A stretch of 64,000 nt of DNA from positions 21,633 to 85,632 of the forward strand of contig JACPWU010000003.1 in the NCBI GenBank assembly GCA_016196885.1. Direction: 5' to 3'. Position numbers and translations under genes: made by a program. The notes under the pieces are model-generated. The model saw nothing but the letters and a program-made list of their open reading frames with translations, did not search any database and was not told where the DNA came from. This DNA comes from Chlamydiota bacterium (GTDB taxonomy: Bacteria > Auribacterota > JACPWU01). Below are positions 3,201 through 53,460 of the stretch, one piece after another; the first letter of the stretch is position 1; each line of letters opens with the position of its first letter.

Positions 3201-6200
3201 AACTTTAAGGATTTTCTGAAGCGTGTAGAGAAAATTCATGAACTGATTCAACAGAAGAAATCAAATCCTTCCCTGACAGAGACAGTCAATGAGCAAATTC
3301 TCTCCCAGACATTGATTGCAGGGGATACGGTCACAGAAAATTTTGTTAAAGTTGGGAAAAAGGCAGTGGGTGTGATAGCAGAGCGATTAAAAGAGAGGCC
3401 AGATTTATTGAATCAAATGGGAATTTTCTTAAATTCCGATGGTTCTATTGATGAAGAAAAGACCTTAAACTTGGTTGAAGTGGGCGGCGATGAACTGACG
3501 TTTGCGATTCCCCAAGAGGCTCTTCAATTGATTGGAGAAGAGGGCCTTTCTCAGATTCAAGTTGAGGCGGGCACGCGAATGATGGTGAGTCCCGTGGAAA
3601 AGGAAAGAGTAGATCGTCGAGACGAGGTTAATTACGGATTGGCAATTGCAAAGCTTGATGAGGGAACAGCCTTGGCAAAAGAGTTGGAGGCGCTTGGATT
3701 TAAGGATTTTTTTGTCCGACGTCTTTTTGATGAGACAACTAAAGAATATTTCTGGAAGGCTTTTTTTAGAAATGCCGAAGGGAATATTGAAGAACGTGAA
3801 ATGGGTTGGAGGCCTGACATGGCTCGAGGAGATGTGGGACATGGAATGCTTGCCATGAGACCCTACCAGATCACACGATTTCAGGAGCATCTTCGATCTC
3901 CTCGGACGCCGATGTTTGATGCAGCTCAATATCTTAAAGGGCTTCTCTCTGATTCAGGTTACTCAAGCTCGGTTGTGTCTCTTTCTTCCGAAGATTTTCG
4001 TTCGTTGATGATGGAAATAGAAAATGGAATTTTTCAGGCGGGTTACTTTGTCCCTGGTTTTGATTTTGGGGATGAAGATAGGCTTAGGCAGTTGAAATCT
4101 TTAAAGAGCGAAGTTGTGAGAGTACGGGGCGTGAATAGAAATCTCCCTCCTGAAGGGGTTGAGGTTAAAAATATAGAAGCTGCCATAGATCAATTGGTGA
4201 ATGACATTGTCCAACACCCTGAAGTTAACCTGCTTATTATTACCGGTGTTCCCGGTGCTGGGAAAGGCGTATTTTCAAAAGCATTAAGACAAAGACTTGA
4301 ATCGACACTACAATCAATAGGCTCAGATAGAACAGTTCAATTAATCGAGCGAGATAAATGTTTTAGTCCTTCCGGTGGATGGTATCGTGCAGAAGAGGAA
4401 TATGATCCAGACACGATTTATGATGTGGAAGGACCCGTGTTTGCTGGGGAAATGATAGAAGAGTTTAGAACTCACATGGTCAATGGGGTTCCTCCGCTTC
4501 GAGCTGAACAAATTCGAAGAATTGGCATTTTTGCTCCCATCGATCAAATTCGCGGCCAATTGGCAGAGCGCGGTCGTACCTTAGAAGTAGACCATACAAC
4601 GGATGTACAACTTGCGGCCGAACTTGACACCCGTTTCGATTATTGGTACTTCGGCGAGGATTTTTCGAAATATACTCTCATGGTAGATAATACCAGAGCC
4701 TCTGGATCGACAGGCGAAAGTGGACATGAAGGGGGGTCAGGGGCAGAGACCCTGGGTGAGACCCTCTCGAGAGGTATCCCCACTGAAACCGTGGCCGGCG
4801 CGCATCCGGTGAGTACGCCTCAAAACCGAGGAGCGAGTTCCAAACTTAATTTGTCGGCTTCTACCCCCGCCATTCCTAAAGAGGCGCGTCACGGCAAACC
4901 AGGCAAAGAACCTCAAAAAGGTTTTGCCATGATAGAAACCTTTGTTCGGGCTCTTTCGGGTGGAAGCGCTGTGATGTTTTTTGTTTTTCTAGGCTGCTTT
5001 GGTTCTGCGTTATCTGTCTTGGTTGGTGGAAGAAGTAATATGCCTACAAATACCAATATTGAGGATATCACCTTTCAAAACCGAGGAGCGAGTTCCAAAC
5101 GAGGATCTATCAGTCTTGATGAGAGAGGAGGGGTCAGACCCTTAACACGCACAACGACAATCGGACGATTGGGTTCACGCTCATGGCTGAATCTGGCCAA
5201 TGCCATACTCTCTTTGTTATATTCAGGGTTGTCTTCGATTTGGAAGACGATCAATGCCTCATTCGGCACTTTTCCAGCCAATTTGTCGTCACTCAACATG
5301 AGTTTACTCCACTCTGTCGTAAGTTCTATGGTCTTGTGGGTAAAGCTCTCTTCACGCATCATAATTCATCCGCTCCTTAATGTATCGGTCTCGGTAGAGG
5401 CGCCAGTTGATTTTAAGATCTTGTTCAGCAATCGTCAGGGCTTCGTTCAAGTCAACCAACCCCATGGGCGTTTTTTCGACGGCACGGCCAGGCCGGTACA
5501 GGTCACGATGGGCGAAATCGTGCGCCGTGTCATAACGAACGATTGGCTCCCAACCGTTCCCACTCCAATACTCCAATTGTACCACAAATTCCACGACTTG
5601 CTTTCCAAATCGCTGGTGCCAATGTCTCAATCGGCAATCCCTGGGCAAGAGGTCGACCACGAAGCTGCGAATCTGAGCCATCCGCTAAGTCTATCGCATG
5701 CCCCAGGATATGTCAATGAGGCCGGGCGAGATCTATTGACTTCCACTTCCACCAAAGCCGCGGGCGGGACACATCCTCTTTCTTCAAACAGAGTCACCGA
5801 AATTTTGGGCAAGATGAAGGAAAGGGGAATTCAAGGACGGGTGATCGCCAGAGATGATTCTCGCTTTAAGGGCATCGAATCTAAAACGGATGATTTCTTA
5901 AGACCTTTAGGTCTTGCAGGTGAAGGAAACAAAGGCTTGGAAAGCATGACGGTTTTTGACGAGGTGGATTTGTCTTACACCTCGACGGATGGAACCGAAG
6001 TGCATGTGAGCCTCAAGAAAGGCGATTCTGTTTTCACAGTGACAGAGACCCAAAAGGGAGAATCTCGAACGACCCAAATCGTTGCTTTTAGAGATGATGA
6101 AGGCGGCGTTTATACAACAGCAAGATTTTGGGATCAAGCGTCTGACGAGGCTTGGGTCGAGCTCTGTGTTCATGAAATCAGCGAAGTCAATGCGAAGACG

Positions 6201-9200
6201 AACCAGAAAATTATTTCTGCGCTTAATCAAATTCAAGTGGATTCCACGGGTCCCGATGCTCGAGTCGAGTTTTTTAAGCGATTTTATGTTTCTCTAACAA
6301 TTCAAAACAATCAGATCACGAGTCTTAAATCTTCTAATGAATCCGATCCGGCTCACGTTCTAGCTGAGTTTCTGGAGGTGGTCAGGACGTTACAAGTTTT
6401 GAGGCAACCCATCACGACAGAAAATGTATTAAGGACGGTCAGCGTTTTGGATCAGAATATAGGAGGCCTGTCTCAAGGTTTGTCTAAAAATCCTCTTGTG
6501 GGACAAGAGCCTACCCATCGGTTTTCAAATTCGAATGCAGAGTTTGTTGATTCAGAGAAGTTGAAGAGATTAAGAGGATTGGCGGAACTCTTTTATGAGG
6601 CTTATACAGATGCTTTTGAAGCCAATAGACTGAGTCAGGGTGAAGCCAAGTGGACCGAAAAGGATATCTTCATTACAGATCCGCTCACGAATCAAAAAAT
6701 GACCATTCAGGATCTTGAAAATATTGAACTTCAATTAAGCGTTGGAGAAAAGAAAACAGAGGCTATTCAAGGAGAATATCGTCCCTATAGAAGACGCATT
6801 GCTAATCTTAAAGGTGTTAAACGTTTAAGTCTCCAAGATGCTTATGGTCCCATGCTTAGAAAAGTTCAATCAGAGTTAAGTCAGGGTAAGCAATCTGTGG
6901 TTTTGCGCATTGGAGGACGAAGTGGCACCGGCAAAACAAGTATTGCGGATGAGATGGGTAAGTGGGGACTGGGCCCTATTTTACCATCAGAAATTTCTGT
7001 CTTGCATGCGGATGATTTAGTTGGTTTTGACTCTATGCGGCTTGCTGTTGAGGTCGAGAAGAAAAAGGGAAAGAAGTTGATTATTTTAGAGGGAACTTAT
7101 TCATTGCGTGGGAGAGAAATGATTTTTGAAGAGAATGCTCCTGAAATAGAAGCGGACGTTCAAGTTTTTGTGGAATTACACGAAGATACCCGCGTTCAGC
7201 GTCTTTTTGAGAGAGCTCATTTTCGTGATAGATCCTGGATTGCCTATATGGATCGAGTGATCAAGGATCGAGAGGATATTCTTCGGGTTGCAAGCAGATA
7301 CTTGCCTGAGTCCTTAGAAAAAAGGATTGTGGATACAGTCCAACAGGTAGATGGAGAAAAAAATGTTGCAAAGGCAGGTGGGTATTATAAAGCTGCAAAG
7401 AAACTACTCTTAGAACATCTTTTAGCTGTTAGAACACAAGGTGCAAACTCGATGTTTGATTTTGCGAGAGTAGAAAATCTAATCGATCGCTATACCATTG
7501 ATCAGGAACGAAGAACAGCGGACATTATTATCAAAAATGATCAGTATAATACCGGATTAGGTGTTCTTGCTGACAATCAAAGCCTCATTTTTAGAGACTC
7601 TTTGAAGCGACTTTCCAGTTTACTTCCTTCAATACAGAAAAATAAAGATGAGATTGTGACCCTTATCATCACACTTGTTAGAGATTTTTCAAGCAACCCT
7701 ATCATTTTAGGAATAGAAGACTTGTTTCAACAAGAAGGCACGACACAAAGACTTACAACAATGAAAACAGATCCATTAAGGAAATGGGTAGAAAAATTCT
7801 TAATTTTACCTGCTCATGTTTCTCAGCTCTCAAGGTTGGTAAGAACCAGCTTAAGAGAGACCTCTCGAAATCCCAGCTTTCTCCACTCTACCCTGGGCGA
7901 TAAGCCTAGAGATGAGGTGAAGCGATGGATTGATCAAAATGCTGACTTCGTAGAGCGATATGCTCCCATCAGGCGCGGCTTGTCACAATTTATGCGCCGT
8001 TATTCTTTGGGTGCTGCGAATATATTGGGTGGCTTAAGTGTGGGTTTCTCAAGAGAGACGTGGTATCGAATTTTTGCGATTGGGTTTGTGGGATCTTTGA
8101 TCAGTGGGATGGCCGCATTTGTTTTATCTCTTTCTTCAGATCGACTTGGCTTTGCAATATTGTCAGGTCTTGCGATCACTTTATTAACCTCAGTTGTTGT
8201 AGATGATATGGCCATGAGTTTTGCAGAGGCACATTATGTAGTAACGAGTGAGAATTATTTGGCAGGAAAAGGAAGAGAAGAATCTCTCAACGGGAAAGAA
8301 CTTTCAGAGGCAGAATATCGGAAGACTCCTGAATACAAGGCCCATCATGATTTTGCGATGAACATAGCCTTGATAGGATTGATCACATTTGTCGCAGGGG
8401 TGATTTTCACACAAGTGACAGGTTTTTCTTTCACATTTCCCTTGTTTATTCTCCTCGAGGTAGTTTCTATCGTAGTTCCTTCGCTCATTCATGCCATCCA
8501 TGACATTCGCTTCTGGTTCGGTCATGAAGAATTGACCTTGCATAGTGCGGGCAATGTGTCATTGCAAGACCTGACCCCAAATAGACTGCTTCAGAAATAT
8601 TTGGATGAAGGGACCATGCTTCAGATAACACTTGTAAATGGAGCGGGTATACGCGTTTTATTCGGTCAGATTGAGAAGATAGAAGTTTCCGGATATTCCC
8701 CAGTTTTTTATTTGAAGGGGTCCCTTTTGCCAGTTCCTATTCAAGATAATGTCAAAGTTAAACCTGTTACAAAAGCTGAAATCTATAAATCGGTTAGAAA
8801 ATCTTTGGGGGAACTTGCAGGCGAGTCGTATTTTGGGAAGAAGTTTTTAAAAACATTGATAGAAATTCCAGATGCCATCAACAAGTTTCTGAGTGGGGTG
8901 GATAGCCATGGTCAGCTAGAGTTGAAAGAGAGATTTCCAACAGCTGCTCAGTCTTATCAAGGTGCGCTCGCAGCATGCTTTTCTGAAAAGGGGAGTACAA
9001 AGCTTGCTTATCTATTGATGAGACAATATAAATTGCCTGATGATCTTCGAAAAAGGGACAGCATTCCCTTTCTTTTCGATGAAAAATTGTCAGAAACGGG
9101 AGGGCTTTCAAAATGGGTGGAAGATGTATTTGTTTTAGAGGGAGAAGCTTTTGAAACTTTGATCAATCAGCAATATGAATCAAGTGTCCGATATATTGGG

Positions 9201-12200
9201 GGAGTATCAGCGATGAAAATGGATGATTTCATTCGGGATGTTGAAGGGGATAAATCAAAATTCAAGATGTCTCTCATTCATGCGCTGGTGGTCTCTTATA
9301 AGGATCTCGAAGGTCGAATGCCTATCGAGACATTTAAGACTCTGCTCGTCAGAGTTGTCATGGAGGCTTATACGGAATCTCACCTGAAGAATGCGCATCA
9401 CGCCTTAACCATTGGTTTAGGACTATTGAGGGAAATGAAGTCACCCAAGACATTTTTCAGAGTCTTGTATCATGAATTTGGGCATAACCTCCTAGAAATG
9501 GTTCATTATTTAGAATACAAAACTTTCTTAGAAAAAGCCCAGAACGAATTAATCAGTGATTTAATGATGTGTTCTGTCCAGGGTGAGGGCGTTCATGATA
9601 TTCGAGAGGCGATTGGATTTTTACAATATGCTTCTGCCGGTATGACGGCCGATGTTAATCGGGGTCAGGCGTTTAGTCCTCATGATTTGGCAAGGGCCCA
9701 ATTGATGAAATTATTCAACAGAATTGGAGAGGCAAATGAGCGCCGTGCAAAACAAGGACTTCCAGCGGTTCGATTGAACTTTAAAGAGTTATTGTTCAGT
9801 GCACTGGAGCTGGGTTTTGATGAAAAAGGTGATTTTTCACAGTGGTTTAATCAAGTGATTCAAAAGGCGTTACGTCCTCAAAAGACTTTTGTGCTGGAAG
9901 GGGGAGTAACAGTTTTTTCTCAACAGCAATTAATGACACGATGGGATAAGTTTAAAAGAATAGCCCTCCTCTCTCTTTATGGTTTAATCCCCGTCGTAGT
10001 ACTTCCCATCATTATTTTATATAGGTTGCGTATTTTAAAGAAGTCCTTCCTTCAAAATTTTGTTCATTGGATGAGGGCATTCATCGGTAAACGAGGCCAA
10101 GTGAACTCACTGGATTGGCTGCCGGGAGAATTAGAACATCTTGACGTTTCAAGAGGAGTACGATTGTCAGAAGTGACTGCCAAACGCATTGGAACTCGAG
10201 CAAATGAAAAAGATGTCAAATGGGATCGGAGCAATGAAGTTGATATTACAAATGAAGTGCAGGCATCTTTAATCGAAGTGATTCAGGTTGTGCTTGGAAA
10301 TGCTCATGTGGATGAGGATGCCACAAGAGCGCCACCGGGTCTGGAAAGACATTCTACATACGAACAAATTTTGAGGAACGTTAGCGAGGCTCTCGAACGT
10401 GGAAAAATCAGAATTGTTTATGCCGATTTTGACAATGATGATGTTGAGGCGACGCGTGTTTTTGAAGACGGTGTGCTGACGGTGGTGATAAATCGAAAGG
10501 CCTTAGATTTGGAGATCATCCTCTCCTACGTCGCCCACGAGTTTGGCGAAGAAAAAGCAGGCCTCTTACACCCTGAAGTCGCCAGTGGCCTTGAGCCCTT
10601 CATTCGCTGGAGGCTTTCCGGAGGAAAGGATTTTATTCCGCGCAGAATAGAACGGGCTGTCGGGCTAGCTGTCTTAAAAGCATTAAATGGGGATATGACG
10701 GCTCAACAATATTTAGAAGATTTTTTAAATGGTTATCAATACGACCGTGAGAAATATGGACGAGAAGGAGAAGAAGTTGCCAATGAATTCTCTCGCGAGG
10801 TTAGGGGATGTTGTGAAGATGCTATTGTGAGAGATATCAGAGAGCTGACTCAATCAGGTTCTCTTTCTATTCTTAGGAATATACCTGGAGGGCTTTTCAA
10901 ACTTTTGATTGACGTGGTTAATTCGTCTGCTCACTACAAAGGAGAAAGTGAGTTGATAGAATTAAGAGATAAAATGCTTCAAGAAAGAGGTGTTGATCTA
11001 AATAAACCACCTTCTGGGGCGGCAAGATATGCCGATGTATCGGATGCGGTTAAAATCTTAGCGGGAGATATCTTACGAGATCCAAAACAAATCACTCTTA
11101 TTTCTGGCATTCCAGGCTCTGGTAAAACAACATTTGGACAAAGGTTGACAGAGGAATTAAGATCGCGTTCTTCTTATTTTCGTGTTGAGTTGATTGAAAC
11201 AGATAATATTCACTCTTCTTTAGAGTATGAAGAAGGAGTGATTTATATCATTGAAGGATCAGCTCTTCAACAATCCAATTTTCAAGAATATATTGGTAGC
11301 TCTATTTTGAAACATGCTTCCCATTCTTCTTTCAGAAGAGTTGGGATGTATGCCCCTGTTGAAGCAGTAAAGACAAGAATACAAGGACGGAGCAGGGATA
11401 AAATGGATATTGATTTGTACTGGCAGGCCTATGATCGAATGCTTTATTGGTATTTGGCAGAGGATTTTTCTCAATATCAAATGGTGGTGCTTAATTATTC
11501 ATTAGGAAAAGAGGGTCTGCAGGAACTTGAAAAAGCAGGCTATCCGATTCTTAGATCTATCGATGATCAATCTTTACCCCCTCTTCGCCCCGGTCAAGAT
11601 CGTTACAAAGTCATCACCGTCTGCCGTGCAAATATTTTTAGAAGTCAGATGCTTCAACTTTTCTTGCAGAAGATGTTTGAAAAATTGGGATTTGGGTCTC
11701 TTTTTGAGGTGAGCTCAAGAGGATTCACTGAACATATTTATAGAGATCCATGGCGCACTCTGTATAAAGAGTATATTCCAACGAGAGAACGTGTCTATTC
11801 CTCTTTAGTGGACAGGGGAGGTCCAGGTCGAAGAGCAGCGGATGAATATTATTTTTTAAAAGAAAGGGCAGAATTTTTAGGAGATGCTGATATTCAATCT
11901 GCCAGTTTAATTTTAGTTGCCGATCAGAATATTAAAGATCGTCTTTCAGAAAAGAATCCAGATCTAGGTGATCGAGTTCGTTTGATGACTGATTTATTTC
12001 CTGAGGGTCATGATCTTTATGGAAAAGATTTGCCGGATCTTCCAGTCAATGGACCTGCTGTAGGGATTCCTTCTTTAAATGGTGCCCAACTCTGGAAACT
12101 TTTAGAAGTTGTAATATCCAATTATCAAAAAGCTTTTGTCCAAAGAATAGACCCCTTCTTCTCCGCCTTTCAGAAATTTCTGCGGTTGAAATTAAAGCCC

Positions 12201-12803
12201 ACCCAAGCGGGTGAGAAGCCGCGCCTTATTATCATGGATGCTGGGATATTGCAGGGGGAGGGGAACGTTGAAAGAATGAAAGTGACTTTACGTGCTTTGA
12301 GAGATGAGATCGAGAGGAGTCAGGATCAAAATCTAAAAGTTTGGATTACGGGCCTAGATGCCCAAGGGGCTGCCTTAAATTTATTCTCAGAATTTAAAGA
12401 AGAAAAATGGTTTAAATTTATGGATTTGACAAGGGGGGATCAAACACTTACGGATCTTCTAGGTGAAGAAAGAATAGACCATGAAAATGTGACTGCAGCC
12501 TATCTTGACCTTGAAGAACACCGAGCTTTTTTTAAGGGCTTAACGATTCAAAAAGTCGTGGTCCGAAAGCCGGGTGAAGGAGAAATCCTTTCATTCTCTG
12601 CTGTTTTCATGGCCTGCCTTGCTGACAATTATGATGAATTACTCGCTCAATTTGATGATCCTGAGCAACGCGCTCAGGTAGAGCAAGTGATTGCGCAAGT
12701 GAGAGAGGGTAATTTAACGGCTTTGTTTGTGAAACCTGTCCGTGTGTCTGATGCTTTACAAGGGAAGATAAGCGCGAGAGAAGAGGCACAGACCAACATG
12801 TAG
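3..12803 (+). CDS. Giant multidomain membrane protein, 5'-partial (at least 4266 aa; the ORF runs off the window start)
   Basis: 12.8 kb with no stop. Hydrophobic helices lie near nt 4920-5040, 8000-8500 and 9960-10030. Enzyme-like motifs (P-loops, HExxH, C(X)5R) are spread along it. Confidence 0.85.
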   Translation: MSKEKLPSSISVLSSVNAINDNFCEFNVKENAIFTEFGSHSNILWDPIVSIESVGFEHVYDIEVEGTHNFVGNGIFAHNTAIFATPTPQTLSQATSNIVGEKLLDEFEKLNGDRPLQEISISEKSGQVLEPLRQALEGHEDAKYMMVRIDVELSQGVVNHVIVIDTVENLRRDVLQLTQGSLDLARISHHISAASANSASSASSDSVGHAQHIAKYASHGLGRLPRIQGRPDALATKSDEKCGLEGFEFILNYSEHGAREEQGVGETLVFLHNITLGTSGQSLLRGRGLMSSVISQWARYLAESTLSGRLTLATDAKHPATISLFKKHFLAHAPSDLEKISLKDRFKVDVEYTTVHPLFGSLPIGLRDAQRPVKIKSLGEIKLVNGTYEVEIPSGVLPENQEGRIVTEINETLRDVSDWLKQSTLSRISGFRMPETLDLSVASFFESLAGSTPERGEQRAGLILARELLAIQDPQGRRQLMRLAILHELASLIWPSLIWPEHRRGRSGDILMEVDAHYLADMMSGESGDASIQAIHGVLSSYAEGQTIVRDRVYASKNPIDVAIYDYYQFTQLVREFRSQIISNQPVPELISYARFMTSRRKDMDARSVVDERVERIKTGQNLSSDDPSRIKDRLNALVRELESDDALALLDRKLEVGDDVVNFYWRGTGDEETIGLKQANDEIWGYGLTNQLISVVQKGALTLMEESGLVELTLETDDKGVLHIKNGRDLIRKNYKSTVFRVAQDRRVGDYELRLGNIQLQLNDALNRYVRGEETALLGKPDEAIVSRFHQSVRDPKKKIQIDFGIGTVRGGDLRSKVEADSEAIKAAIMAHHSEARRFDQETFEAGIEEAVKIKNILIEARFSLFTASGELDSDTFDHLRKWEKFEKSQHDTWSGVLGQSSMTLTDVQSSVSEGMSYPEFLESRNASGLLQNHLLRKLYHYHLAKHFFEWVGIVDYIKEWQSDALKAQERSRQVNDALKYIQENRSEYEKIIGKLSEGVPSLETHEASLRESMEEKIRLAQSLLSSDRKIPGCTSRRVFDARAFSHSEKGMVFINLDVKGMGRENFKDFLKRVEKIHELIQQKKSNPSLTETVNEQILSQTLIAGDTVTENFVKVGKKAVGVIAERLKERPDLLNQMGIFLNSDGSIDEEKTLNLVEVGGDELTFAIPQEALQLIGEEGLSQIQVEAGTRMMVSPVEKERVDRRDEVNYGLAIAKLDEGTALAKELEALGFKDFFVRRLFDETTKEYFWKAFFRNAEGNIEEREMGWRPDMARGDVGHGMLAMRPYQITRFQEHLRSPRTPMFDAAQYLKGLLSDSGYSSSVVSLSSEDFRSLMMEIENGIFQAGYFVPGFDFGDEDRLRQLKSLKSEVVRVRGVNRNLPPEGVEVKNIEAAIDQLVNDIVQHPEVNLLIITGVPGAGKGVFSKALRQRLESTLQSIGSDRTVQLIERDKCFSPSGGWYRAEEEYDPDTIYDVEGPVFAGEMIEEFRTHMVNGVPPLRAEQIRRIGIFAPIDQIRGQLAERGRTLEVDHTTDVQLAAELDTRFDYWYFGEDFSKYTLMVDNTRASGSTGESGHEGGSGAETLGETLSRGIPTETVAGAHPVSTPQNRGASSKLNLSASTPAIPKEARHGKPGKEPQKGFAMIETFVRALSGGSAVMFFVFLGCFGSALSVLVGGRSNMPTNTNIEDITFQNRGASSKRGSISLDERGGVRPLTRTTTIGRLGSRSWLNLANAILSLLYSGLSSIWKTINASFGTFPANLSSLNMSLLHSVVSSMVLWVKLSSRIIIHPLLNVSVSVEAPVDFKILFSNRQGFVQVNQPHGRFFDGTARPVQVTMGEIVRRVITNDWLPTVPTPILQLYHKFHDLLSKSLVPMSQSAIPGQEVDHEAANLSHPLSLSHAPGYVNEAGRDLLTSTSTKAAGGTHPLSSNRVTEILGKMKERGIQGRVIARDDSRFKGIESKTDDFLRPLGLAGEGNKGLESMTVFDEVDLSYTSTDGTEVHVSLKKGDSVFTVTETQKGESRTTQIVAFRDDEGGVYTTARFWDQASDEAWVELCVHEISEVNAKTNQKIISALNQIQVDSTGPDARVEFFKRFYVSLTIQNNQITSLKSSNESDPAHVLAEFLEVVRTLQVLRQPITTENVLRTVSVLDQNIGGLSQGLSKNPLVGQEPTHRFSNSNAEFVDSEKLKRLRGLAELFYEAYTDAFEANRLSQGEAKWTEKDIFITDPLTNQKMTIQDLENIELQLSVGEKKTEAIQGEYRPYRRRIANLKGVKRLSLQDAYGPMLRKVQSELSQGKQSVVLRIGGRSGTGKTSIADEMGKWGLGPILPSEISVLHADDLVGFDSMRLAVEVEKKKGKKLIILEGTYSLRGREMIFEENAPEIEADVQVFVELHEDTRVQRLFERAHFRDRSWIAYMDRVIKDREDILRVASRYLPESLEKRIVDTVQQVDGEKNVAKAGGYYKAAKKLLLEHLLAVRTQGANSMFDFARVENLIDRYTIDQERRTADIIIKNDQYNTGLGVLADNQSLIFRDSLKRLSSLLPSIQKNKDEIVTLIITLVRDFSSNPIILGIEDLFQQEGTTQRLTTMKTDPLRKWVEKFLILPAHVSQLSRLVRTSLRETSRNPSFLHSTLGDKPRDEVKRWIDQNADFVERYAPIRRGLSQFMRRYSLGAANILGGLSVGFSRETWYRIFAIGFVGSLISGMAAFVLSLSSDRLGFAILSGLAITLLTSVVVDDMAMSFAEAHYVVTSENYLAGKGREESLNGKELSEAEYRKTPEYKAHHDFAMNIALIGLITFVAGVIFTQVTGFSFTFPLFILLEVVSIVVPSLIHAIHDIRFWFGHEELTLHSAGNVSLQDLTPNRLLQKYLDEGTMLQITLVNGAGIRVLFGQIEKIEVSGYSPVFYLKGSLLPVPIQDNVKVKPVTKAEIYKSVRKSLGELAGESYFGKKFLKTLIEIPDAINKFLSGVDSHGQLELKERFPTAAQSYQGALAACFSEKGSTKLAYLLMRQYKLPDDLRKRDSIPFLFDEKLSETGGLSKWVEDVFVLEGEAFETLINQQYESSVRYIGGVSAMKMDDFIRDVEGDKSKFKMSLIHALVVSYKDLEGRMPIETFKTLLVRVVMEAYTESHLKNAHHALTIGLGLLREMKSPKTFFRVLYHEFGHNLLEMVHYLEYKTFLEKAQNELISDLMMCSVQGEGVHDIREAIGFLQYASAGMTADVNRGQAFSPHDLARAQLMKLFNRIGEANERRAKQGLPAVRLNFKELLFSALELGFDEKGDFSQWFNQVIQKALRPQKTFVLEGGVTVFSQQQLMTRWDKFKRIALLSLYGLIPVVVLPIIILYRLRILKKSFLQNFVHWMRAFIGKRGQVNSLDWLPGELEHLDVSRGVRLSEVTAKRIGTRANEKDVKWDRSNEVDITNEVQASLIEVIQVVLGNAHVDEDATRAPPGLERHSTYEQILRNVSEALERGKIRIVYADFDNDDVEATRVFEDGVLTVVINRKALDLEIILSYVAHEFGEEKAGLLHPEVASGLEPFIRWRLSGGKDFIPRRIERAVGLAVLKALNGDMTAQQYLEDFLNGYQYDREKYGREGEEVANEFSREVRGCCEDAIVRDIRELTQSGSLSILRNIPGGLFKLLIDVVNSSAHYKGESELIELRDKMLQERGVDLNKPPSGAARYADVSDAVKILAGDILRDPKQITLISGIPGSGKTTFGQRLTEELRSRSSYFRVELIETDNIHSSLEYEEGVIYIIEGSALQQSNFQEYIGSSILKHASHSSFRRVGMYAPVEAVKTRIQGRSRDKMDIDLYWQAYDRMLYWYLAEDFSQYQMVVLNYSLGKEGLQELEKAGYPILRSIDDQSLPPLRPGQDRYKVITVCRANIFRSQMLQLFLQKMFEKLGFGSLFEVSSRGFTEHIYRDPWRTLYKEYIPTRERVYSSLVDRGGPGRRAADEYYFLKERAEFLGDADIQSASLILVADQNIKDRLSEKNPDLGDRVRLMTDLFPEGHDLYGKDLPDLPVNGPAVGIPSLNGAQLWKLLEVVISNYQKAFVQRIDPFFSAFQKFLRLKLKPTQAGEKPRLIIMDAGILQGEGNVERMKVTLRALRDEIERSQDQNLKVWITGLDAQGAALNLFSEFKEEKWFKFMDLTRGDQTLTDLLGEERIDHENVTAAYLDLEEHRAFFKGLTIQKVVVRKPGEGEILSFSAVFMACLADNYDELLAQFDDPEQRAQVEQVIAQVREGNLTALFVKPVRVSDALQGKISAREEAQTNM
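6880..7260 (+). other. Uridine kinase / phosphoribulokinase-like P-loop module inside giant protein 1
   Basis: The motifs VVLRIGGRSGTGKTS (Walker A), LIILEGTY and VFVELHEDTRVQRLFERAHFRDR resemble the UK/PRK family signatures GxSGSGKT, IxEG and DxxxRxxRRxxRD. Confidence 0.45.
9440..9500 (+). other. HExxH zincin-like motif (YHEFGHNLLEMVH) in giant protein 1
   Basis: An HEFGH pentapeptide flanked by hydrophobic residues. No third metal ligand was identified. Confidence 0.3.
11080..11440 (+). other. Second UK/PRK-like P-loop kinase module (a third P-loop, GVPGAGKG, lies near nt 4240-4280)
   Basis: ITLISGIPGSGKTTFG followed by IYIIEGS. An additional Walker A, LLIITGVPGAGKGVF, sits at about 4230-4280. 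Confidence 0.4.
11590..12060 (+). other. Low-molecular-weight protein tyrosine phosphatase / ArsC-fold-like module in giant protein 1
   Basis: VITVCRANIFRS matches the LMW-PTP P-loop C-x-x-N-I-x-R-S (C(X)5R-S). A downstream SSRGF resembles the ATSGY region. Confidence 0.45.
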
Positions 12804-12834: not shown

Positions 12835-13013
12835 TTTCACCTGAAAATAGTCTTTAGTCATTCTTATACAATGACTCATGATGACTTGTAGTCGCCCGAT
12901 TTATCGGGCAATGCCCAATGCCACAATGTCATAGACCGCCCCATAAATGGGGCGACTACAAGGGTAATTTTCATCCCCCTTTGTGCCGACCTCAGTCGGC
13001 ATGAATGTTTCAT
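12835..13013. repeat. ~175-bp palindromic MITE-like element, copy A; its core is the GTAGTCGCC...GGCGACTAC double-hairpin at 12888-12959
   Basis: Near-identical inverted copy at 15834-16002. The core has hairpins GCCCGAT-TTA-TCGGGC and GCCCCAT-AAA-TGGGGC inside an outer stem GTAGTCGC/GCGACTAC, plus the hairpin TGCCGAC-CTCA-GTCGGCA. Confidence 0.8.
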
Positions 13014-13042
13014 TGTATGATGTATAGATGTAAGGAGGGGAT

Positions 13043-13318
13043 ATGAGCGCCGTAGGTTTTGTGAGGGTTAATTTTATTTTGCCCAAAAATCTTTATCAAG
13101 CTTTAAAGGCTCTGGTTCCTGAAAGAAAAAGGAGCAAGCTGGTTACAAATTTGATTCAAAAGGAATTAAAGCGGGTGGAGAACAATCTTTACAAGGTGGC
13201 CAGAGCTGTGGAAAAAGATAAGAAGCTGCATCAGGAGATGCAAATATGGGACGTCACCTTAAACGATGGATTAGATGACCACGAATTTCAAGTTCTGGAA
13301 AGGAACACCCTCCGTTGA
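13043..13318 (+). CDS. Ribbon-helix-helix (CopG/MazE-like) antitoxin with a C-terminal extension that may be a fused toxin N-terminus
   Basis: VRVNFILPKNLYQALKALVPERKRSKLVTNLIQKEL is a typical RHH β-strand plus two helices. A Shine-Dalgarno GGAGGGGA precedes the ATG. Confidence 0.6.
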   Translation: MSAVGFVRVNFILPKNLYQALKALVPERKRSKLVTNLIQKELKRVENNLYKVARAVEKDKKLHQEMQIWDVTLNDGLDDHEFQVLERNTLR

Positions 13319-13335
13319 CAATTCAAGTTACCTGC

Positions 13336-13473
13336 ATGGGAAGACCTGCTATTGCAGTGATTGATCAAATCAGAGCGGTTGATAAATCAAGAATTGTGAA
13401 ACTTTGTGATGAGCTTCATTCTCAAGAAATGTTGAGTTTAGAAGCGGCTCTTAGAGCAGTGCTGGGGTTGTAA
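13336..13473 (+). pseudogene. C-terminal remnant of a MazF/PemK/Kid-family toxin (46 codons, different frame from the upstream RHH gene)
   Basis: MGRPAIAVIDQIRAVDKSRIVKLCDELHSQEMLSLEAALRAVLGL resembles the PemK/Kid C-terminus (...QIRTIDKxRL..KxGxLsxExMxxVxxALxxxLGL). The N-terminal two-thirds of the toxin are missing. Confidence 0.55.
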
Positions 13474-13551
13474 ACGGGTGATGGATATATTTTTTTAAAT
13501 GAGTAAAATCAGATTATATGATAATATGATTATCAGTTCTGGAGGTGTTCT

Positions 13552-13830
13552 ATGAAAAATGTTCTTGCGGTAACGGAGATGGCTCGGCATTTTGCGGAGT
13601 ATATCAATCGTGTAGCTTATCGGGGCGAGTGTTTTGTGCTTTTGCGTGGAAAAAAGGCGGTTGCAGAAATTAAGCCTGTTTTAGGGGGAAAGCGCCTGAG
13701 GGAGTTGCCGGATATTTTAAAGTCGCTGTCTCATTTATCTGAAGAAGAGGCCGTTTCTTTTAGGCGGGATGTAGATCTTTTAAGAAGAAAATCCAGGAAA
13801 GAATCCTTGAGGGATCCATGGGCGTCTTGA
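13552..13830 (+). CDS. Phd/YefM-family type II antitoxin
   Basis: AVTEMARHFAEYINRVAYRGECFVLLRGKKAVAEIKPV matches the Phd/YefM fold pattern. SD GGAGGTG precedes the ATG, and the gene overlaps the downstream PIN gene by 13 nt. Confidence 0.7.
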   Translation: MKNVLAVTEMARHFAEYINRVAYRGECFVLLRGKKAVAEIKPVLGGKRLRELPDILKSLSHLSEEEAVSFRRDVDLLRRKSRKESLRDPWAS

Positions 13831-14222
13831 TTGATTCAAGTGTATTGATAGAGCTTGAAAGGGGTCGAGAAGACTCTGCAAAGCTGATCAAAGGGCGAGA
13901 GGATGATGAGTTTTTTATATCTGTTGTGACCGCGAGCGAGCTACTTCATGGAGTTTTTCGCGCCAAGCATGCCAGTGATCGAACCCGACGTTCCGCTTTT
14001 GTAGAGGGTGTTTTGGGCCAATTTCCTCTGATTGACATTGATTTGATGGTGGCTCGGATTCATGCCCGATTATATTCAGATCTTGAGTCTAAAGGAACTA
14101 AAATTGGAATGAAGGACTCTTGGTTGGCGGCCACGGCAATTGCCTATGATCATACTTTGATGACCTTTAATATAAAAGACTTCAAAAGGGTGTCCGGCCT
14201 CAAAGTAGAATCTCCAGGGTGA
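13818..14222 (+). CDS. vapC: PIN-domain VapC-family toxin
   Basis: N-terminal MGVLIDSSVLIELERG carries the first PIN Asp. The pattern SVVTASELLHG ... DSWLAATA is VapC-like, and the gene is translationally coupled to the Phd gene. Confidence 0.7.
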   Translation: MGVLIDSSVLIELERGREDSAKLIKGREDDEFFISVVTASELLHGVFRAKHASDRTRRSAFVEGVLGQFPLIDIDLMVARIHARLYSDLESKGTKIGMKDSWLAATAIAYDHTLMTFNIKDFKRVSGLKVESPG

Positions 14223-14280
14223 CTTTTATTTACTTCAAGCAGCAGATTGTTCTTGGAAGCTTTGTGATATGATCAAAACT

Positions 14281-14682
14281 CTATTCTTCAAGAGCCTGCT
14301 TTAAGAATCGGTCCATTTCTTCCACAAATTCCTGGGCCTCGATGAGGGCCTTCTCTGCTACTTCTTGGTCAATGGCAGAATAAATCTCATAATCGCCGTT
14401 CTCGCGATCGTCTTTGAGATTGGATAGATAGCGACCGAATTTACGATCCACTTTCCCTGTTTTTACGAAATGAAGGCCGAAGAGGTTGACCAATCCCTGA
14501 TGTGTTTGAGCGGACAAGCCTTCTGTGAGAAGAACAGCTTGTGCAGCATGAAAAGCGGCATAATAGGCTCTTGAAACCGCATCGTCATAGGCTTTCAGTT
14601 TTACAAGCGATTCAGTCACTGAAAGTTTTTCCTTGGCCTTCTCAATATATCCCTGAATGAGGGAAGAAGTTTTTTTATCCAA
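14281..14682 (-). CDS. HEPN-domain protein (toxin partner of a minimal nucleotidyltransferase)
   Basis: AVSRAYYAAFHAAQAVL ... R(x)4-6H-like HEPN region. Overlaps the upstream MNT gene by 8 nt. A paralogue lies at 54555-54968. Confidence 0.7.
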   Translation of the reverse strand: MDKKTSSLIQGYIEKAKEKLSVTESLVKLKAYDDAVSRAYYAAFHAAQAVLLTEGLSAQTHQGLVNLFGLHFVKTGKVDRKFGRYLSNLKDDRENGDYEIYSAIDQEVAEKALIEAQEFVEEMDRFLKQALEE

Positions 14683-14992
14683 TTTTGATGCCTTCTTTTT
14701 GAATATGTTCCATAAAAGGGGTTGGAATCTGTCTCAAGCGATCAAATTCAGTTCTCTTGAAAAATTTCAGAGAGATCACCTTTCCTGTTTCTAAGAGGAT
14801 GTCTAAGACGATGTCGTAGAGTGCATCTTTGAATTCGAGGTCCATTCTAGACAGGACGATCAAAACATCATAGTCAGAATCAGGTCGAGCATCGCCCCTG
14901 GCCCTGGAGCCAAAAAGGTAAAGCTCCTCCATGGGCCCCTTCAATCGAAGGGTTTCTTGAATGAATCTTTGCAAGATAGGGTCTATGATCAT
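14675..14992 (-). CDS. Minimal nucleotidyltransferase (MNT, Pol-β fold) antitoxin partner of HEPN
   Basis: LYLFGSRARGDARPDSDYDVLIV matches the GS-x(9-13)-DxD nucleotidyltransferase signature. Confidence 0.75.
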   Translation of the reverse strand: MIIDPILQRFIQETLRLKGPMEELYLFGSRARGDARPDSDYDVLIVLSRMDLEFKDALYDIVLDILLETGKVISLKFFKRTEFDRLRQIPTPFMEHIQKEGIKIG

Positions 14993-15026
14993 GGGGGCAT
15001 TATATCATATTGTGTGTAAAAGAAAG

Positions 15027-15074
15027 ATCTCTCGTCCCCAGCCCTTTGTGAACAAAGGGCTGGGGACGAGAGAT
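15027..15074. promoter_or_regulatory. Perfect 22-bp-stem inverted repeat (ATCTCTCGTCCCCAGCCCTTTGT-gaa-ACAAAGGGCTGGGGACGAGAGAT) in the divergent promoter region between the MNT-HEPN and RHH-PIN operons
   Basis: Read directly from the sequence. It sits between two divergently transcribed TA operons, so it is not a terminator for either. Confidence 0.5.
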
Positions 15075-15140
15075 GACACGCAATTTAACGCGTTTGTATT
15101 AGTTCGGCTAGGTATTTGACATTGCTATTCAAGATATTTT

Positions 15141-15151
15141 TGTGTTACAAT
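15141..15151 (+). promoter_or_regulatory. Extended -10-like motif TGTGTTACAAT upstream of the RHH-PIN operon
   Basis: TGnTACAAT lies ~30 nt upstream of ATG 15180 with an intervening GGGAGG Shine-Dalgarno. The identical 11-mer recurs at 53420-53430 upstream of another TA operon. Confidence 0.4.
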
Positions 15152-15179
15152 GTCTTACATAAAGGGAGGATTGCCTCGA

Positions 15180-15398
15180 ATGAATACGACATTGACCATA
15201 CGGATCCCAAGCCGTCTTCGCAGGGAACTCAAGGAGATGAGTAAGCTTGAGCATGTGCCCATGAGTGAACTTGTTCGGGTTTCTTTGGCCAATTTTGTTT
15301 CTTTGAGAAAATTTCGTAAGCTAAGACAGCAAGTGCTCCCCTTTGCCGAGGCCCAAGGGCTTCTCTCAGACGAAGATGTTTTCAGAGTTCTTTCATGA
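15180..15398 (+). CDS. Ribbon-helix-helix (CopG-like) antitoxin
   Basis: MNTTLTIRIPSRLRRELKEMSKLEHVPMSELVRVSLANF is an RHH pattern. SD GGGAGG lies 10 nt upstream. The ORF-track start at 15150 overlaps the -10 motif, so 15180 is preferred. The gene overlaps the PIN gene by 4 nt. Confidence 0.6.
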   Translation: MNTTLTIRIPSRLRRELKEMSKLEHVPMSELVRVSLANFVSLRKFRKLRQQVLPFAEAQGLLSDEDVFRVLS

Positions 15399-15802
15399 AG
15401 GTTCTTCTGGATAGCAATGTGATTGTTGCTGCCTTTGCGGCTCGTGGATTATGCCATGCCCTATTCGAGGTTTGTCTCGCAAAGCACCAGATCGTACTGG
15501 GCCCTTACATTGTAGATGAGGTCAAAAAGGCCCTTCGAGAGAAGATAAAACTTCCTTCAGGGAAAATTGAAGAAATAGTTTTCTTTCTTAAATCTCGCGC
15601 CTTTTTTGTTGAACCTGTCAGATTATCTGAAAATCCATGTCGTGATGCGAAAGATCTTCAAATTCTCGCATTGGCTGTGAGCGCAAAAGCGAGGTGCCTT
15701 ATAACAGGTGATAAGGACTTGCTTTTTCTCAAGAGGTATCAATCCATTTTAATTTTGACCCCGCGTGAGTTCTGGGATTTTTCTAAAACTTATAAAGATT
15801 AA
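15395..15802 (+). CDS. PIN-domain toxin
   Basis: MKVLLDSNVIVAAF carries the PIN N-terminal Asp, followed by ...LITGDKDLL. Translationally coupled to the RHH gene. Confidence 0.65.
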   Translation: MKVLLDSNVIVAAFAARGLCHALFEVCLAKHQIVLGPYIVDEVKKALREKIKLPSGKIEEIVFFLKSRAFFVEPVRLSENPCRDAKDLQILALAVSAKARCLITGDKDLLFLKRYQSILILTPREFWDFSKTYKD

Positions 15803-15825
15803 GCAGCCGATCGTTCCTGGATGTT
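15798..15825. repeat. 28-bp direct repeat GATTAAGCAGCCGATCGTTCCTGGATGT, copy 1; the second copy is at 16058-16085
   Basis: Perfect 28/28 match. Copy 1 contains the PIN stop codon (gat TAA). Copy 2 contains the HigA stop codon on the opposite strand together with HigA's last 8 codons. The two copies bracket a 232-bp segment that holds MITE-like copy B. Confidence 0.85.
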
Positions 15826-15833
15826 CAATTGCT

Positions 15834-16002
15834 ATGAAACATTCATGCCGACTGAGGTCGGCACAAAAGGGGATGTTGTAGTCGCCCCATTTATGGGGCG
15901 GTCTATGACATTGGGGCATTGGGCATTGCCCGATAAATCGGGCGACTACAAGTCATCATGAGTCATTGTATAAGAATGACTAAAGACTATTTTCAGGTGA
16001 AA
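15834..16002. repeat. ~170-bp palindromic MITE-like element, copy B, inverted relative to copy A; core at 15878-15949
   Basis: Its reverse complement matches 12835-13013 nearly base for base, apart from a ~10-bp indel. The spurious ORFs 12607-12879(-) and 15958-16191(+) both begin MSHCIRMTKDYFQVK and derive from this repeat. Confidence 0.8.
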
Positions 16003-16059
16003 TGCGGGCTAGGGACGATGTCAACATTCTATTTTGGTGGAATGCTAATTTGCGATAGA

Positions 16060-16320
16060 TTAAGCAGCCGATCGTTCCTGGATGTCCCAGCTGGGAAAAA
16101 GGAGCACAGATGGGTGACATTTAAGTGCTCGAGCCAGCGCCTTTGCCCGTTCAACGCCCAATTTAATGTGTCCTTTCTCAAGGGCAGATAGGGTGGGCTG
16201 GGGAATGCCACTTAAATAAGCCAGTTTGTTTTGACTAAAATTCTGGAGCTCTCTCAAAATACGTACAGATTCTCCAACAGATACTTCAACGCTTCTTCTT
16301 GCGATTCTGTAATCTTTCAT
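16060..16320 (-). CDS. higA: HigA-like XRE-family HTH antitoxin
   Basis: LRELQNFSQNKLAYLSGIPQPTLSALEKGH is a Cro/C1-type HTH. Located immediately downstream of a RelE/HigB-like gene, with a 1-nt gap. Confidence 0.7.
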   Translation of the reverse strand: MKDYRIARRSVEVSVGESVRILRELQNFSQNKLAYLSGIPQPTLSALEKGHIKLGVERAKALARALKCHPSVLLFPSWDIQERSAA

Positions 16321-16321
16321 T

Positions 16322-16603
16322 TTACTTTCTCCTGTAATCGTGTGCTGTGATATCCATTACCTTCACGTATATCTTGTCGCTTTCTCTCCAATAAATCACA
16401 CGATATTGAAGACCGAGTCGTGACGAGCGGTATCCCTCCCATGAACCTTTCAGAGCTTCATCGTGAAAGCCTTTAATCTGACGTAAGCCCATGGGGCCTG
16501 AAATGCTAACAATGTCTTTCCACTTCTCATATCGTTTCAAAATCTCTATCGGGATCCGAAAAAGTTTCTTCGTTAACGCTTGATGTTCATAAACAATCCA
16601 CAT
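16322..16603 (-). CDS. higB: RelE/ParE-superfamily toxin (HigB-like, toxin-first arrangement)
   Basis: 93 aa, basic, with IKGFHDEALKGSWEGYRSSRL...YRVIY...VKVMDITAHDY resembling HigB/RelE. The toxin sits upstream of the HTH antitoxin. Confidence 0.6.
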   Translation of the reverse strand: MWIVYEHQALTKKLFRIPIEILKRYEKWKDIVSISGPMGLRQIKGFHDEALKGSWEGYRSSRLGLQYRVIYWRESDKIYVKVMDITAHDYRRK

Positions 16604-16668
16604 ACTATGTTTATACTATATCTTTTTTATTATGTCCAGGAAATGAATGTACGAAAACATTATCACTT

Positions 16669-16859
16669 GTCATTCCCGCAATCTTCAACGAAGTAGCCCC
16701 TATGGGGTAAGCGGGAATCCAAAAGGCTGGATCCCCCCGACAAAAGCACTCGGGGATGACACCGAGTATGGGTCATTCCCGCAGGCTTCAAGCGGGAATC
16801 CAGAATGGATCCCCGACAACCCCGAAGGTGGCTGCTTCGCTGAAGCACTCGGGGATGAC
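16669..16859. repeat. Two tandem copies of a ~90-bp double-hairpin repeat (units 16669-16760 and 16772-16859)
   Basis: Each unit has the stem ATTCCCGC/GCGGGAAT and the stem ATCCCCGA/TCGGGGAT with structured loops, including GCTTCGCTGAAGC. A related copy lies inside giant gene 3 at ~62025-62200. Confidence 0.7.
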
Positions 16860-20217: not shown

Positions 20218-21057
20218 ATGAAGTTTAAAATTTTGACCATTTTAATATTAAGTTTGCTTTTTCCTGTGAGTAGCGTTTTTGCTGTGGGTTTAAGGGTGAG
20301 CCCGGGAAGAGCCACAGTGGTTTTAAAGCCAGGTGAGCAAAAAGAAGGGGTTTATCATATTAAAAATACATCGAATACGACTCAAAAGATTTTGGTTCAG
20401 GCTGAGGATTGGGTTCAATTTCGACAAGGCAAGCCTCGTGTTCGAGCTGAGGGATGGCTTAATTTTGAGAAGACAGAATTTGTTTTAGATGTGGGAGAGG
20501 AAACAGAGCTAAAGTACAAGGTTCTTTTGGATAAGGATTTTAGAGGGGAAAAAGTGGCCCAGGTTTTTTTTACCCCTGTTCCGACGGGGGATTCCAGTCA
20601 GGGTGTTTCGATTCGTGTTCGTTCGGGTGTTTTGTTGATGGCCATTGCGAAGGAGGACATTCAGGTTAAGGCTGAGATTGGGATGGTTTCTTGGACCCAA
20701 CAGAAGGATGGCGTTTCTGCTTTGCAAATTCAGATCAAGGATGCAGGCAATGTCCATATTAAATTAGGCGGTGAAGTAAAGGTTTTGAATGAAAAGGGGG
20801 ATGTGATTTGGAAAGGGGTTTTGGACCCGGCCCAGACGCCGGGCCTTTTTGCCGGGGAAGAGAGGCCCTATTCGCTTCCCTTTAATATGAAAGTTTTGAA
20901 AGAGTCGGAGAAATATCTTTGTGTGATTGAATTGGATTATGGCGTGAATGATGCGAAGGGACTTTCTGTTTCGAAGAAGTTGGATTTGAGATTGGTGGCG
21001 AATGAGGTTGTTTTTGCCGAGAGGGTGGGAATACCAGTCGTGAGTCGTGAGTCGTGA
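20218..21057 (+). CDS. Secreted β-sandwich protein, PapD-like / pilus-assembly-chaperone N-domain-like
   Basis: Signal peptide MKFKILTILILSLLFPVSSVFA. LRVSPGRATVVLKPGEQKEGVYHIKNTSNTTQKILVQAED resembles the PapD N-terminal fold pattern. The stop codon lies inside a (GTCGTGA)3 heptamer repeat. Confidence 0.4.
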   Translation: MKFKILTILILSLLFPVSSVFAVGLRVSPGRATVVLKPGEQKEGVYHIKNTSNTTQKILVQAEDWVQFRQGKPRVRAEGWLNFEKTEFVLDVGEETELKYKVLLDKDFRGEKVAQVFFTPVPTGDSSQGVSIRVRSGVLLMAIAKEDIQVKAEIGMVSWTQQKDGVSALQIQIKDAGNVHIKLGGEVKVLNEKGDVIWKGVLDPAQTPGLFAGEERPYSLPFNMKVLKESEKYLCVIELDYGVNDAKGLSVSKKLDLRLVANEVVFAERVGIPVVSRES

Positions 21058-21060
21058 GTG
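21037..21060 (+). repeat. (GTCGTGA)x3 heptanucleotide tandem repeat containing the stop codon of gene 20218-21057
   Basis: gtcgtgagtcgtgagtcgtgagtg. The same heptamer occurs with 2.6 copies in-frame in giant gene 2 (27389-27406), and split by a 24-bp insertion in giant gene 3 (56594-56634). Confidence 0.8.
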
Positions 21061-21138
21061 CTTTGCTTGTCATTGCGAGGAAGCTGTAGGCAGGCGAAGC
21101 AATCTTGAGTTTTGGAGAGCATTCTGGAAGTTTGTTAT

Positions 21139-21213
21139 GTAGTCGCCCCATTTATGGGGCTGCCCGATGAATCGGGCGACTACAAAAGAGGGCTGCCCGA
21201 TGAATCGGGCGAC
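21139..21213. repeat. GTAGTCGCC-family palindromic element (short form, B orientation) with an internal 31-bp tandem duplication
   Basis: GTAGTCGCCCCATTTATGGGGCTGCCCGATGAATCGGGCGACTAC followed by AAAAGAGGGCTGCCCGATGAATCGGGCGACTAC. Overlaps the spurious ORFs 21070-21327(-) and 21112-21300(+). Confidence 0.75.
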
Positions 21214-21296
21214 TACAAAAAAAGCATGATGGGGAGAACTTTCATTGCATATGATGGTCTCGAATACGGGTTCGCAATGGCAGAGTGGTGGGATAG

Positions 21297-53407: not shown

Positions 53408-53419
53408 GATTCTTCAAAA

Positions 53420-53430: not shown

Positions 53431-53460
53431 TGCCTCGTTATTTTGAGGAGAGGAGAGTCT

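Follow-up and report, generated by a model that had tools for sequence, protein, structure and literature searches.

Two inverted copies of a REPIN-containing repeat around an apparent patchwork of toxin-antitoxin genes in a Chlamydiota-labelled metagenome-assembled genome

The DNA analyzed here (the window) is a stretch of 64,000 nt from contig JACPWU010000003.1 of the metagenome-assembled genome (MAG) GCA_016196885.1, deposited as a Chlamydiota bacterium. It holds a cluster of toxin-antitoxin (TA) genes that lies between two near-identical inverted repeats, copy A (12835-13013, plus strand, 179 nt) and copy B (15834-16002, minus strand, 169 nt). Judged by its sequence, the core of both repeats is a doublet of repetitive extragenic palindromic (REP) units, i.e., a REPIN. 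The favored history of the locus, with a probability of about 50%, is that a discrete REPIN-based unit gave rise to A and B as two recent copies, which were placed separately behind convergent gene units, probably by an enzyme of the REP-associated tyrosine transposase (RAYT) type acting in trans, and that the TA genes between them are a patchwork built up stepwise.

For the repeat pair, A and the reverse complement of B were aligned globally. Of 169 aligned positions, 167 are identical, the mismatches being those at 12923 and 12979, and the longest perfect block measures 88 nt. A 10-nt insertion in this alignment, GGGTAATTTT (12962-12971, plus strand), is exclusive to A. The repeat search reported the inverted arms as two pairs, 12835-12961 with 15876-16002 and 12972-13013 with 15834-15875. 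The first-pass annotation of this DNA had described near-identical inverted copies at these positions, and the alignment bears this out, with the insertion in A as an addition. Identity breaks off sharply at the same bases at both ends of each copy, and the outer and inner flanks of A and B have no likeness above chance, all four being unrelated. The window sequence corresponds to positions 21737-85736 of JACOUD010000054.1 (GCA_016178005.1; NCBI label Chlamydiae/Chlamydiota). For three sequencing runs, Logan assemblies match the window at 100% identity and break 24-30 nt into the repeat arms. Since such breaks are the behavior of a k=31 graph at a true repeat, neither of the two copies and none of their four junctions is the artefact of one assembler. 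As single-stranded DNA, A has a predicted folding energy of -37.1 kcal/mol, compared with -16.2 +/- 3.1 kcal/mol for shuffled sequences (z = -6.7). All hairpins that had been proposed from the sequence were recovered in this fold, namely the outer GTAGTCGC stem, the inner GCCCGAT/ATCGGGC and GCCCCAT/ATGGGGC hairpins, and the TGCCGAC/GTCGGCA hairpin. The outer stem and the two inner hairpins are those of the REPIN doublet.

Copy A consists of a left arm (12835-12887), the REPIN core (12888-12959), and a right arm (12960-13013). In both copies, the 72-nt core is a doublet of 22-nt hairpin units that have a GTAG head and the pattern GTAGTCGCCC[G/C]ATTTAT[C/G]GGGC. Pattern search placed a G-type unit, GTAGTCGCCCGATTTATCGGGC, at 12888-12909 (plus strand) and a C-type unit, GTAGTCGCCCCATTTATGGGGC, which is inverted relative to the first, at 12938-12959 (minus strand). 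The 28-nt spacer between them (12910-12937) includes the A/B mismatch at 12923. The units of B are located at 15878-15899 (plus strand) and 15928-15949 (minus strand). In total, the pattern search found nine REP units in the window against an expectation of zero. These units occupy four loci, all intergenic, and each consists of GTAGTC followed by a 7-bp stem whose halves enclose a 2-nt loop. The third locus (21139-21216) has three units and the fourth (55033-55088), at the far end of a second TA island, has two; both are without arms. At all four loci, a G-type unit and a C-type unit form an inverted doublet, with spacers of 28, 28, 1, and 12 nt.

The defining features of a REP sequence are a GT[A/G]G tetranucleotide at the 5' end and a palindrome after it; REPs are numerous, intergenic, and mainly arranged as close inverted doublets known as REPINs (PMC3686654; PMC3337134). 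With its head, palindrome, and inverted doublet, the core of A and B agrees with this definition and is, on sequence grounds, a REPIN. The first-pass annotation had pictured a miniature hairpin-forming repeat and named a RAYT-type transposase as the enzyme to seek, which was right in that the core fits this class. Its proposal to look for further copies was fruitful for the REP units, which recur at two more loci of the window and in other MAGs, but not for the arms, of which the window and the fetched loci hold no further copy. A generic search of the window for GTAG plus a hairpin revealed no further convincing family. Rfam gave no match at gathering score in the window, and relaxing the threshold to E <= 5 produced only spurious miRNA-type matches to a palindrome at 15027-15074. 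A search for tRNA and tmRNA genes found none. The one literature match to the hairpin sequence, the Yfr1 terminator, is unrelated.

Beyond this genome, a scan of genome contigs matched the exact 22-nt unit in at least 51 stretches. These belong to about 25 MAGs with at least 10 phylum labels, including Stahlbacteria, WOR-3, Zixibacteria, Poribacteria, Nitrospinota, Nitrospirae, Planctomycetota, Elusimicrobiota, Doudnabacteria, Actinomycetota, and others. In the loci of these other MAGs, the REP unit is again mostly accompanied by an inverted partner. Over 113 units, the 7-bp stem covaries (e.g., GCCCGAT/ATCGGGC, GTCTGAT/ATCAGAC, and GTCCAAT/ATTGGAC), and the GTAGT head and the AT-TY-AT apex are invariant. 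Compensatory changes in the stem together with a fixed head and apex are the pattern of a hairpin that is read by a protein, which argues that the family is real and structurally constrained. The spread of the unit across phyla appears unusually wide for a REP class. In viral contigs, neither the REP pattern nor the right arm had a match, and clustering of the open reading frames near REP matches revealed no recurrent family.

A RAYT-like gene was found in one of these lineages. A Stahlbacteria contig (L011) has a Y1_Tnp gene at 1340-2140 (Pfam 4.7e-10) with GTAG-headed REPs of another class (GGAGTAGGGCGTTTACGCCC) on either side of it, and the MAG to which this contig belongs also holds many copies of the REP class studied here. 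The combination of a Y1_Tnp gene and flanking REPs indicates that REP-RAYT systems exist in these lineages.

The family resembles the REP/REPIN-RAYT systems of P. fluorescens SBW25 (GI-GIII) and E. coli (REP and TnpA-REP) in several respects. These include a unit of 22 nt in which a short palindrome comes after the 5' GTAG head, close inverted doublets that fold to a hairpin, the absence of target-site duplications, and spacer lengths that vary by locus (here 1, 12, and 28 nt). Those systems are also intergenic and multi-copy, and the four loci seen here in 64 kb, all intergenic, would be in line with such a distribution. The family differs in that no RAYT gene was found with this REP class in the window or in the fetched loci that carry it, and in that the exact unit is present across many phyla, whereas the described systems are largely lineage-specific and vertically inherited. 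This distribution of one 22-nt unit among many candidate phyla bears on the lineage-bound view of REPIN-RAYT systems. Moreover, in SBW25 no spacer sequence is common to any two REPINs (PMC3337134), whereas A and B have conserved arms of about 50 nt and a near-identical spacer (one mismatch). The findings add a clear REP/REPIN family to a lineage essentially without described ones, that of Chlamydiota-labelled MAGs with giant genes. Bacterial interspersed mosaic elements (BIMEs) of E. coli, such as BIME-1/RIP, combine inverted Y and Z REPs in a mosaic with extra non-REP motifs in 3' intergenic positions. Similarly, the locus here has an inverted mosaic of G-type and C-type units with extra motifs, also 3' intergenic. 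However, the extra motifs of BIMEs are found at many loci, and the arms here are found at two only.

Outside the REPIN, A and B share the 53-nt left arm and a right arm of 44-54 nt, and they share the whole spacer within it. The left arm has a hairpin at 12856-12876 (plus strand; AGTCATT, loop cttatac, AATGACT), seen in both the sequence and the fold. The right arm has one at 12984-13001 (plus strand; TGCCGAC, loop ctca, GTCGGCA), seen in the fold and scored as weakly terminator-like in a terminator scan. A search of JGI metagenomes with the left-arm 21-mer returned a single chance match in a copia-like eukaryotic retroelement contig. With regard to the ends, terminal inverted repeats are absent (the last 30 nt, when reverse-complemented, match the first 30 nt at only 8 positions), and no target-site duplication, i.e., no match of 2 nt or longer, abuts A or B. 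These two absences argue against a miniature inverted-repeat transposable element (MITE) of the DDE type and are compatible with an HUH-type insertion. Miniature elements derived from IS200/IS605 likewise lack terminal inverted repeats and target-site duplications, and the hairpins of the unit, about 21 nt from its left end and about 12 nt from its right end, are reminiscent of those elements. In IS608, the subterminal hairpins are 19 nt and 10 nt from the ends. However, the two hairpin sequences are unrelated here and the left flanks differ (TTGC for A and CGCA for B), with no common target tetranucleotide evident, such that A and B lack features by which members of that group are recognized.

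Comparison of the arms with the flanks of the other REPINs gave no significant likeness except for one motif. This motif, TTTCATTG(CA)TATGATG, is located at 13008-13024 and 21233-21249, i.e., 3' of REPIN A and of the 21.1-kb REPIN and 5' of the next gene in each case. Among 2000 shuffles, 2 scored as high, and eight such tests were made; in A, the motif spans the repeat boundary. It may be a candidate promoter element.

Taken together, the favored history would involve a non-coding unit, composed of the REPIN and arms of about 50 nt, that was placed twice without target-site duplication. The placement sites would be the 3' intergenic regions of a plus-strand giant gene (A) and of a minus-strand RelE-XRE operon (B), and the inverted geometry of A and B would follow because these two outer genes are convergent. 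As with REPINs in general, the engine would most likely be a RAYT-type HUH (Y1) transposase acting in trans, with hairpins of single-stranded DNA as its substrate.

Several results weigh against this history. A blastn-short search of the window and of about 350 kb of fetched loci revealed no third copy of the arms, and the two other REPINs of the window lack them, which places the arms outside the ordinary REPIN. A single pair of copies does not suffice to distinguish a discrete mobile unit from a one-off local duplication. The two arm hairpins share no sequence, unlike the ends of IS200/IS605 elements. Among six-frame open reading frames of the window and of the fetched loci with this REP class, no RAYT gene was found; the queries were the RAYT of the Stahlbacteria contig and an approximate E. 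coli YafM sequence, and only that contig itself matched. Finally, HUH-type insertion fails to explain a 29-nt direct repeat around B, for which a separate earlier event or another mechanism is needed.

This direct repeat is informative for the build-up of the TA island. Its first copy, DR1 (AGATTAAGCAGCCGATCGTTCCTGGATGT; 15796-15824, plus strand), overlaps the stop codon of a PIN_3 toxin gene (15395-15802, plus strand; Pfam 1e-12). The second copy, DR2 (16057-16085, plus strand), has the same sequence (29/29, direct) and comprises the last eight codons and the stop codon of a minus-strand XRE/HTH_3 antitoxin gene just outside B (16060-16320; Pfam). The two copies bracket B alone. Between them is a 232-nt non-coding insert (15825-16056), in which copy B is preceded by 9 nt and followed by 54 nt of sequence without traceable origin. 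With the insert and one repeat removed, PIN_3 and XRE would be convergent genes with a common TTAA. A degenerate third copy, DR3 (14232-14260, plus strand; 21/29), lies in the same orientation between the stop codons of the VapC and HEPN genes. The next-best match among the 128,000 positions on both strands of the 64 kb is 18/29, and 2 of 300 shuffles scored as high as DR3 in local alignment. Because the 29-nt repeat bounds the B segment, B arrived, or its site arose, in a separate event; and because a third copy is found inside the island, assembly of the latter took several steps. The TA genes thus have the appearance of a patchwork of cassettes rather than of a composite transposon or a single mobile unit. 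A 13-mer common to the outer junction of B and the giant gene is at chance level (E 0.44).

A similar layout is found in the second TA island (53323-55176, plus strand), which is located 3' of a gene for 9029 aa and consists of DUF433 and DUF5615 genes, then MNT and HEPN genes, and then the fourth REPIN. The last ~79 nt of the 9029-aa gene (R1, 53323-53401) recur as direct repeats at 54068-54146 (R2, 97%) and 55117-55176 (R3, 72%), and an in-frame stop codon of its own comes after each of the three. In each of the two islands, divergence is greatest in the repeat most distant from the anchor gene, as tandem accretion at a gene 3' end would produce. No integrase was found within 10 kb, and the direct repeats of either island have neither the attC-type ends of integron cassettes (RYYYAAC...GTTRRRY) nor obvious dyad symmetry. 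These patterns suggest a serial insertion of TA cassettes, one by one, at gene 3' ends, with each insertion leaving a direct repeat of the target gene end (DR2, DR1, and DR3 in the first island; R1, R2, and R3 in the second). This repeat-punctuated layout of both TA islands, and likewise the spread of the REP unit across phyla, is the more interesting lead. For annotation, the lesson is that a TA cluster between near-identical inverted repeats is not necessarily a mobile or invertible island.

Parallels to this layout exist in described systems. The pdif modules of Acinetobacter plasmids and TA integron cassettes also form a patchwork of small TA units between short repeated sites. However, the 29-nt and 79-nt repeats here are the 3' ends of neighboring genes, and are without the XerC/D dyad, attC ends, or a nearby integrase. 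Tandem accretion, as in cis-mobilizable elements (CIMEs), tRNA-targeting islands, and tycheposons, likewise leaves serial repeats of the target 3' end with the distal one most diverged, and inserts without an integrase. It differs in that the targets here are protein-coding (an antitoxin gene and a giant gene) and the inserts are only 0.23-1.5 kb, one of them gene-free.

For the gene content, the first-pass annotation had listed four TA modules between A and B. Pfam supports this content except for the first antitoxin, a putative ribbon-helix-helix (RHH) protein (13043-13318, plus strand) that has no Pfam match and owes its label to context. This gene is followed by a C-terminal remnant of MazF/PemK (13315-13473, plus strand; Pfam 1e-05, profile positions 70-109 only). 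The second module has a Phd/YefM-like antitoxin (13552-13830, plus strand; a weak Pfam match, 0.004) and a VapC PIN toxin (13818-14222, plus strand; Pfam 2e-14). The third has a HEPN gene (14281-14682, minus strand; Pfam 1e-19) and an MNT nucleotidyltransferase gene (14675-14992, minus strand; Pfam 1e-11), and the fourth combines the PIN_3 toxin with an RHH/CopG antitoxin (15180-15398, plus strand; Pfam 6.5e-4). Outside B, the XRE antitoxin and a RelE/HigB-like toxin (16322-16603, minus strand; Pfam; RelE/StbE family in the NCBI name) form a fifth module (16060-16603). A cluster look-up that covered ~15 billion proteins placed all eight proteins examined from the island region (seven inside the island and the RelE-like toxin) in singleton clusters limited to this population. 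The nearest relative of the RelE-like toxin is 76% identical and occurs in unrelated contexts, and looking for empty sites by way of toxin homologues yielded none. The GC content of the island does not differ from that of its flanks.

Among the alternatives, a one-off inverted duplication is the foremost, and we regard it as possible but rather unlikely. In this scenario, B would have been copied from A in the course of replication or repair. A fork would stall at the REPIN hairpin, and the polymerase would change over to A on the opposite strand as its template and come back 29 nt upstream of its point of departure, such that the inverted copy, the filler, and the 29-nt target duplication would arise from a single event. 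The observation that the arms exist in two copies only, 2.8 kb apart and inverted, is in line with such an origin, as are the perfect 29-nt duplication and the 9-nt and 54-nt fillers that flank B. The 10-mer AGGGTAATTT (12961-12970), which overlaps the insertion in A, is seen again 255 nt upstream at 12706-12715, and this may hint at template switching. However, a 10-mer match is no more than chance would give in a search space of this size, and no template for the filler could be traced within 13 kb (9-mer matches only, at chance level). Moreover, the repeat-bounded cassettes of the second island would be unexplained unless insertions of 0.7-1 kb of foreign DNA could arise by this process too.

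It is doubtful that B is instead a small non-coding cassette, inserted by the same Campbell-type recombination that stacked the TA cassettes, with A as a similar remnant. Such recombination would be site-specific or driven by short homology, and the arms would be cassette sequence instead of part of a REPIN-based element. The recurring segments DR2-B-DR1, DR1-(RHH/PIN_3, MNT/HEPN)-DR3, R1-(DUF433/DUF5615)-R2, and R2-(MNT/HEPN+REPIN)-R3 speak for this alternative, as does the greater divergence of the repeat farthest from the anchor in each series, which is like the tandem accretion of integrative elements. However, A has no flanking direct repeat, the repeats are unequal in length (29 and 79 nt) and without recombinase-type dyad symmetry, no integrase is nearby, and a 261-bp circle would be at the lower limit for such intermediates. 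A broader and similarly improbable idea is that the genome runs an unrecognized, integrase-independent process that stacks tiny cassettes at gene 3' ends, each time duplicating 29-79 nt. The cassettes would range from TA pairs of 0.7-1.5 kb to the 232-nt gene-free REPIN piece, and REPINs or a RAYT could take part. The cross-phylum REP unit would then imply a horizontal spread of REP-RAYT.

The first-pass annotation had likened the locus to a composite MITE-flanked module. The corresponding hypothesis, in which a 3.2-kb non-autonomous element with TA cargo has A and B as its termini and is moved by a transposase (conceivably a RAYT) encoded elsewhere, appears very unlikely. Its attraction is that the ends are near-identical and inverted, and that the geometry would be like that of a RAYT locus, in which the gene is bracketed by inverted REPs, if TA genes had replaced that gene. 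The flanks of the A-to-B block also match directly outside both ends, but only for 3 nt (TGC), as expected by chance in 1 of 64 cases. Furthermore, the unit lacks terminal inverted repeats and target-site duplications, and the 29-nt repeat around B has one copy inside the block and one outside, with the degenerate third copy also internal. The block is seen nowhere else in the protein look-up, in which its proteins are singletons and the RelE-like toxin has a relative at 76% identity, and one of the modules is a decayed MazF remnant. The likeness to a composite module is thus not upheld. The accompanying remark that no recombinase gene is present was accurate both within and near the island.

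An invertible segment, in which A and B are crossover sites for a site-specific invertase or for regular RecA flips that alter gene expression, is just as improbable, since no invertase or recombinase domain is found among the genes up to 10 kb on either side, every arm-gene junction is unchanged by a flip (the same arm stays beside the island, and no promoter-gene junction is altered), and known invertons have repeats of ~10-30 bp. An inversion-prone segment had been suggested for this locus, and the suggestion stands only to the extent that RecA exchange is physically possible, given that the 88-nt perfect block exceeds the minimal length for RecA recombination in E. coli. Rare RecA-dependent flips are thus plausible, and nothing points to a programmed switch. 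Short-read assembly alone cannot fix the orientation between inverted repeats. Accession numbering gives the same gene order in two independent NCBI MAGs (MBI1883903-12 and MBI3265543-52), namely RHH, Phd, VapC, HEPN, RHH, PIN_3, XRE, and toxin. The consensus orientation is thus the same in these two assemblies, and no inverted isomer was seen in them or in the three Logan assemblies, in which the sequence is that of the window.

Some minor features of the region are also of note. The palindrome at 15027-15074 is perfect over 23 bp with a 2-nt loop (ATCTCTCGTCCCCAGCCCTTTGT/ACAAAGGGCTGGGGACGAGAGAT) and is located in the divergent promoter region of the MNT and RHH genes. Candidate readings are an operator, a bidirectional terminator, and another type of repeat. 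A 34-nt segment near the 3' end of the giant gene upstream of A (12717-12750) is 76% identical to 15598-15630 in PIN_3 (p ~0.03). The protein segments concerned are ALFVKPVRVSDA and AFFVEPVRLSEN, and this likeness may be due to chance. The window has giant genes in tandem, which encode 6016, 9029, and >3200 aa (3-12803, 26318-53407, and 55590 onward, respectively). The first contains an intein, and the N-terminal regions of two of them are 76-93% identical (27222-28094 and 56426-57310). A 20-nt perfect inverted repeat, CTAGCCCGCATTTCTCATCA (551-570 and 716-735), is located in giant gene coding sequence, ~300 nt 3' of the intein C-terminus. Further short repeats, intergenic where examined, are GTCATTCCCGC...GAAGCAGCC, GTCATTGCGAGGAAGC...GCGAAGCAATC, and runs of GTCGTGAGTCGTGAG, at 16664-16701, 16772-16791, 62052-62089, and 21030-21110.

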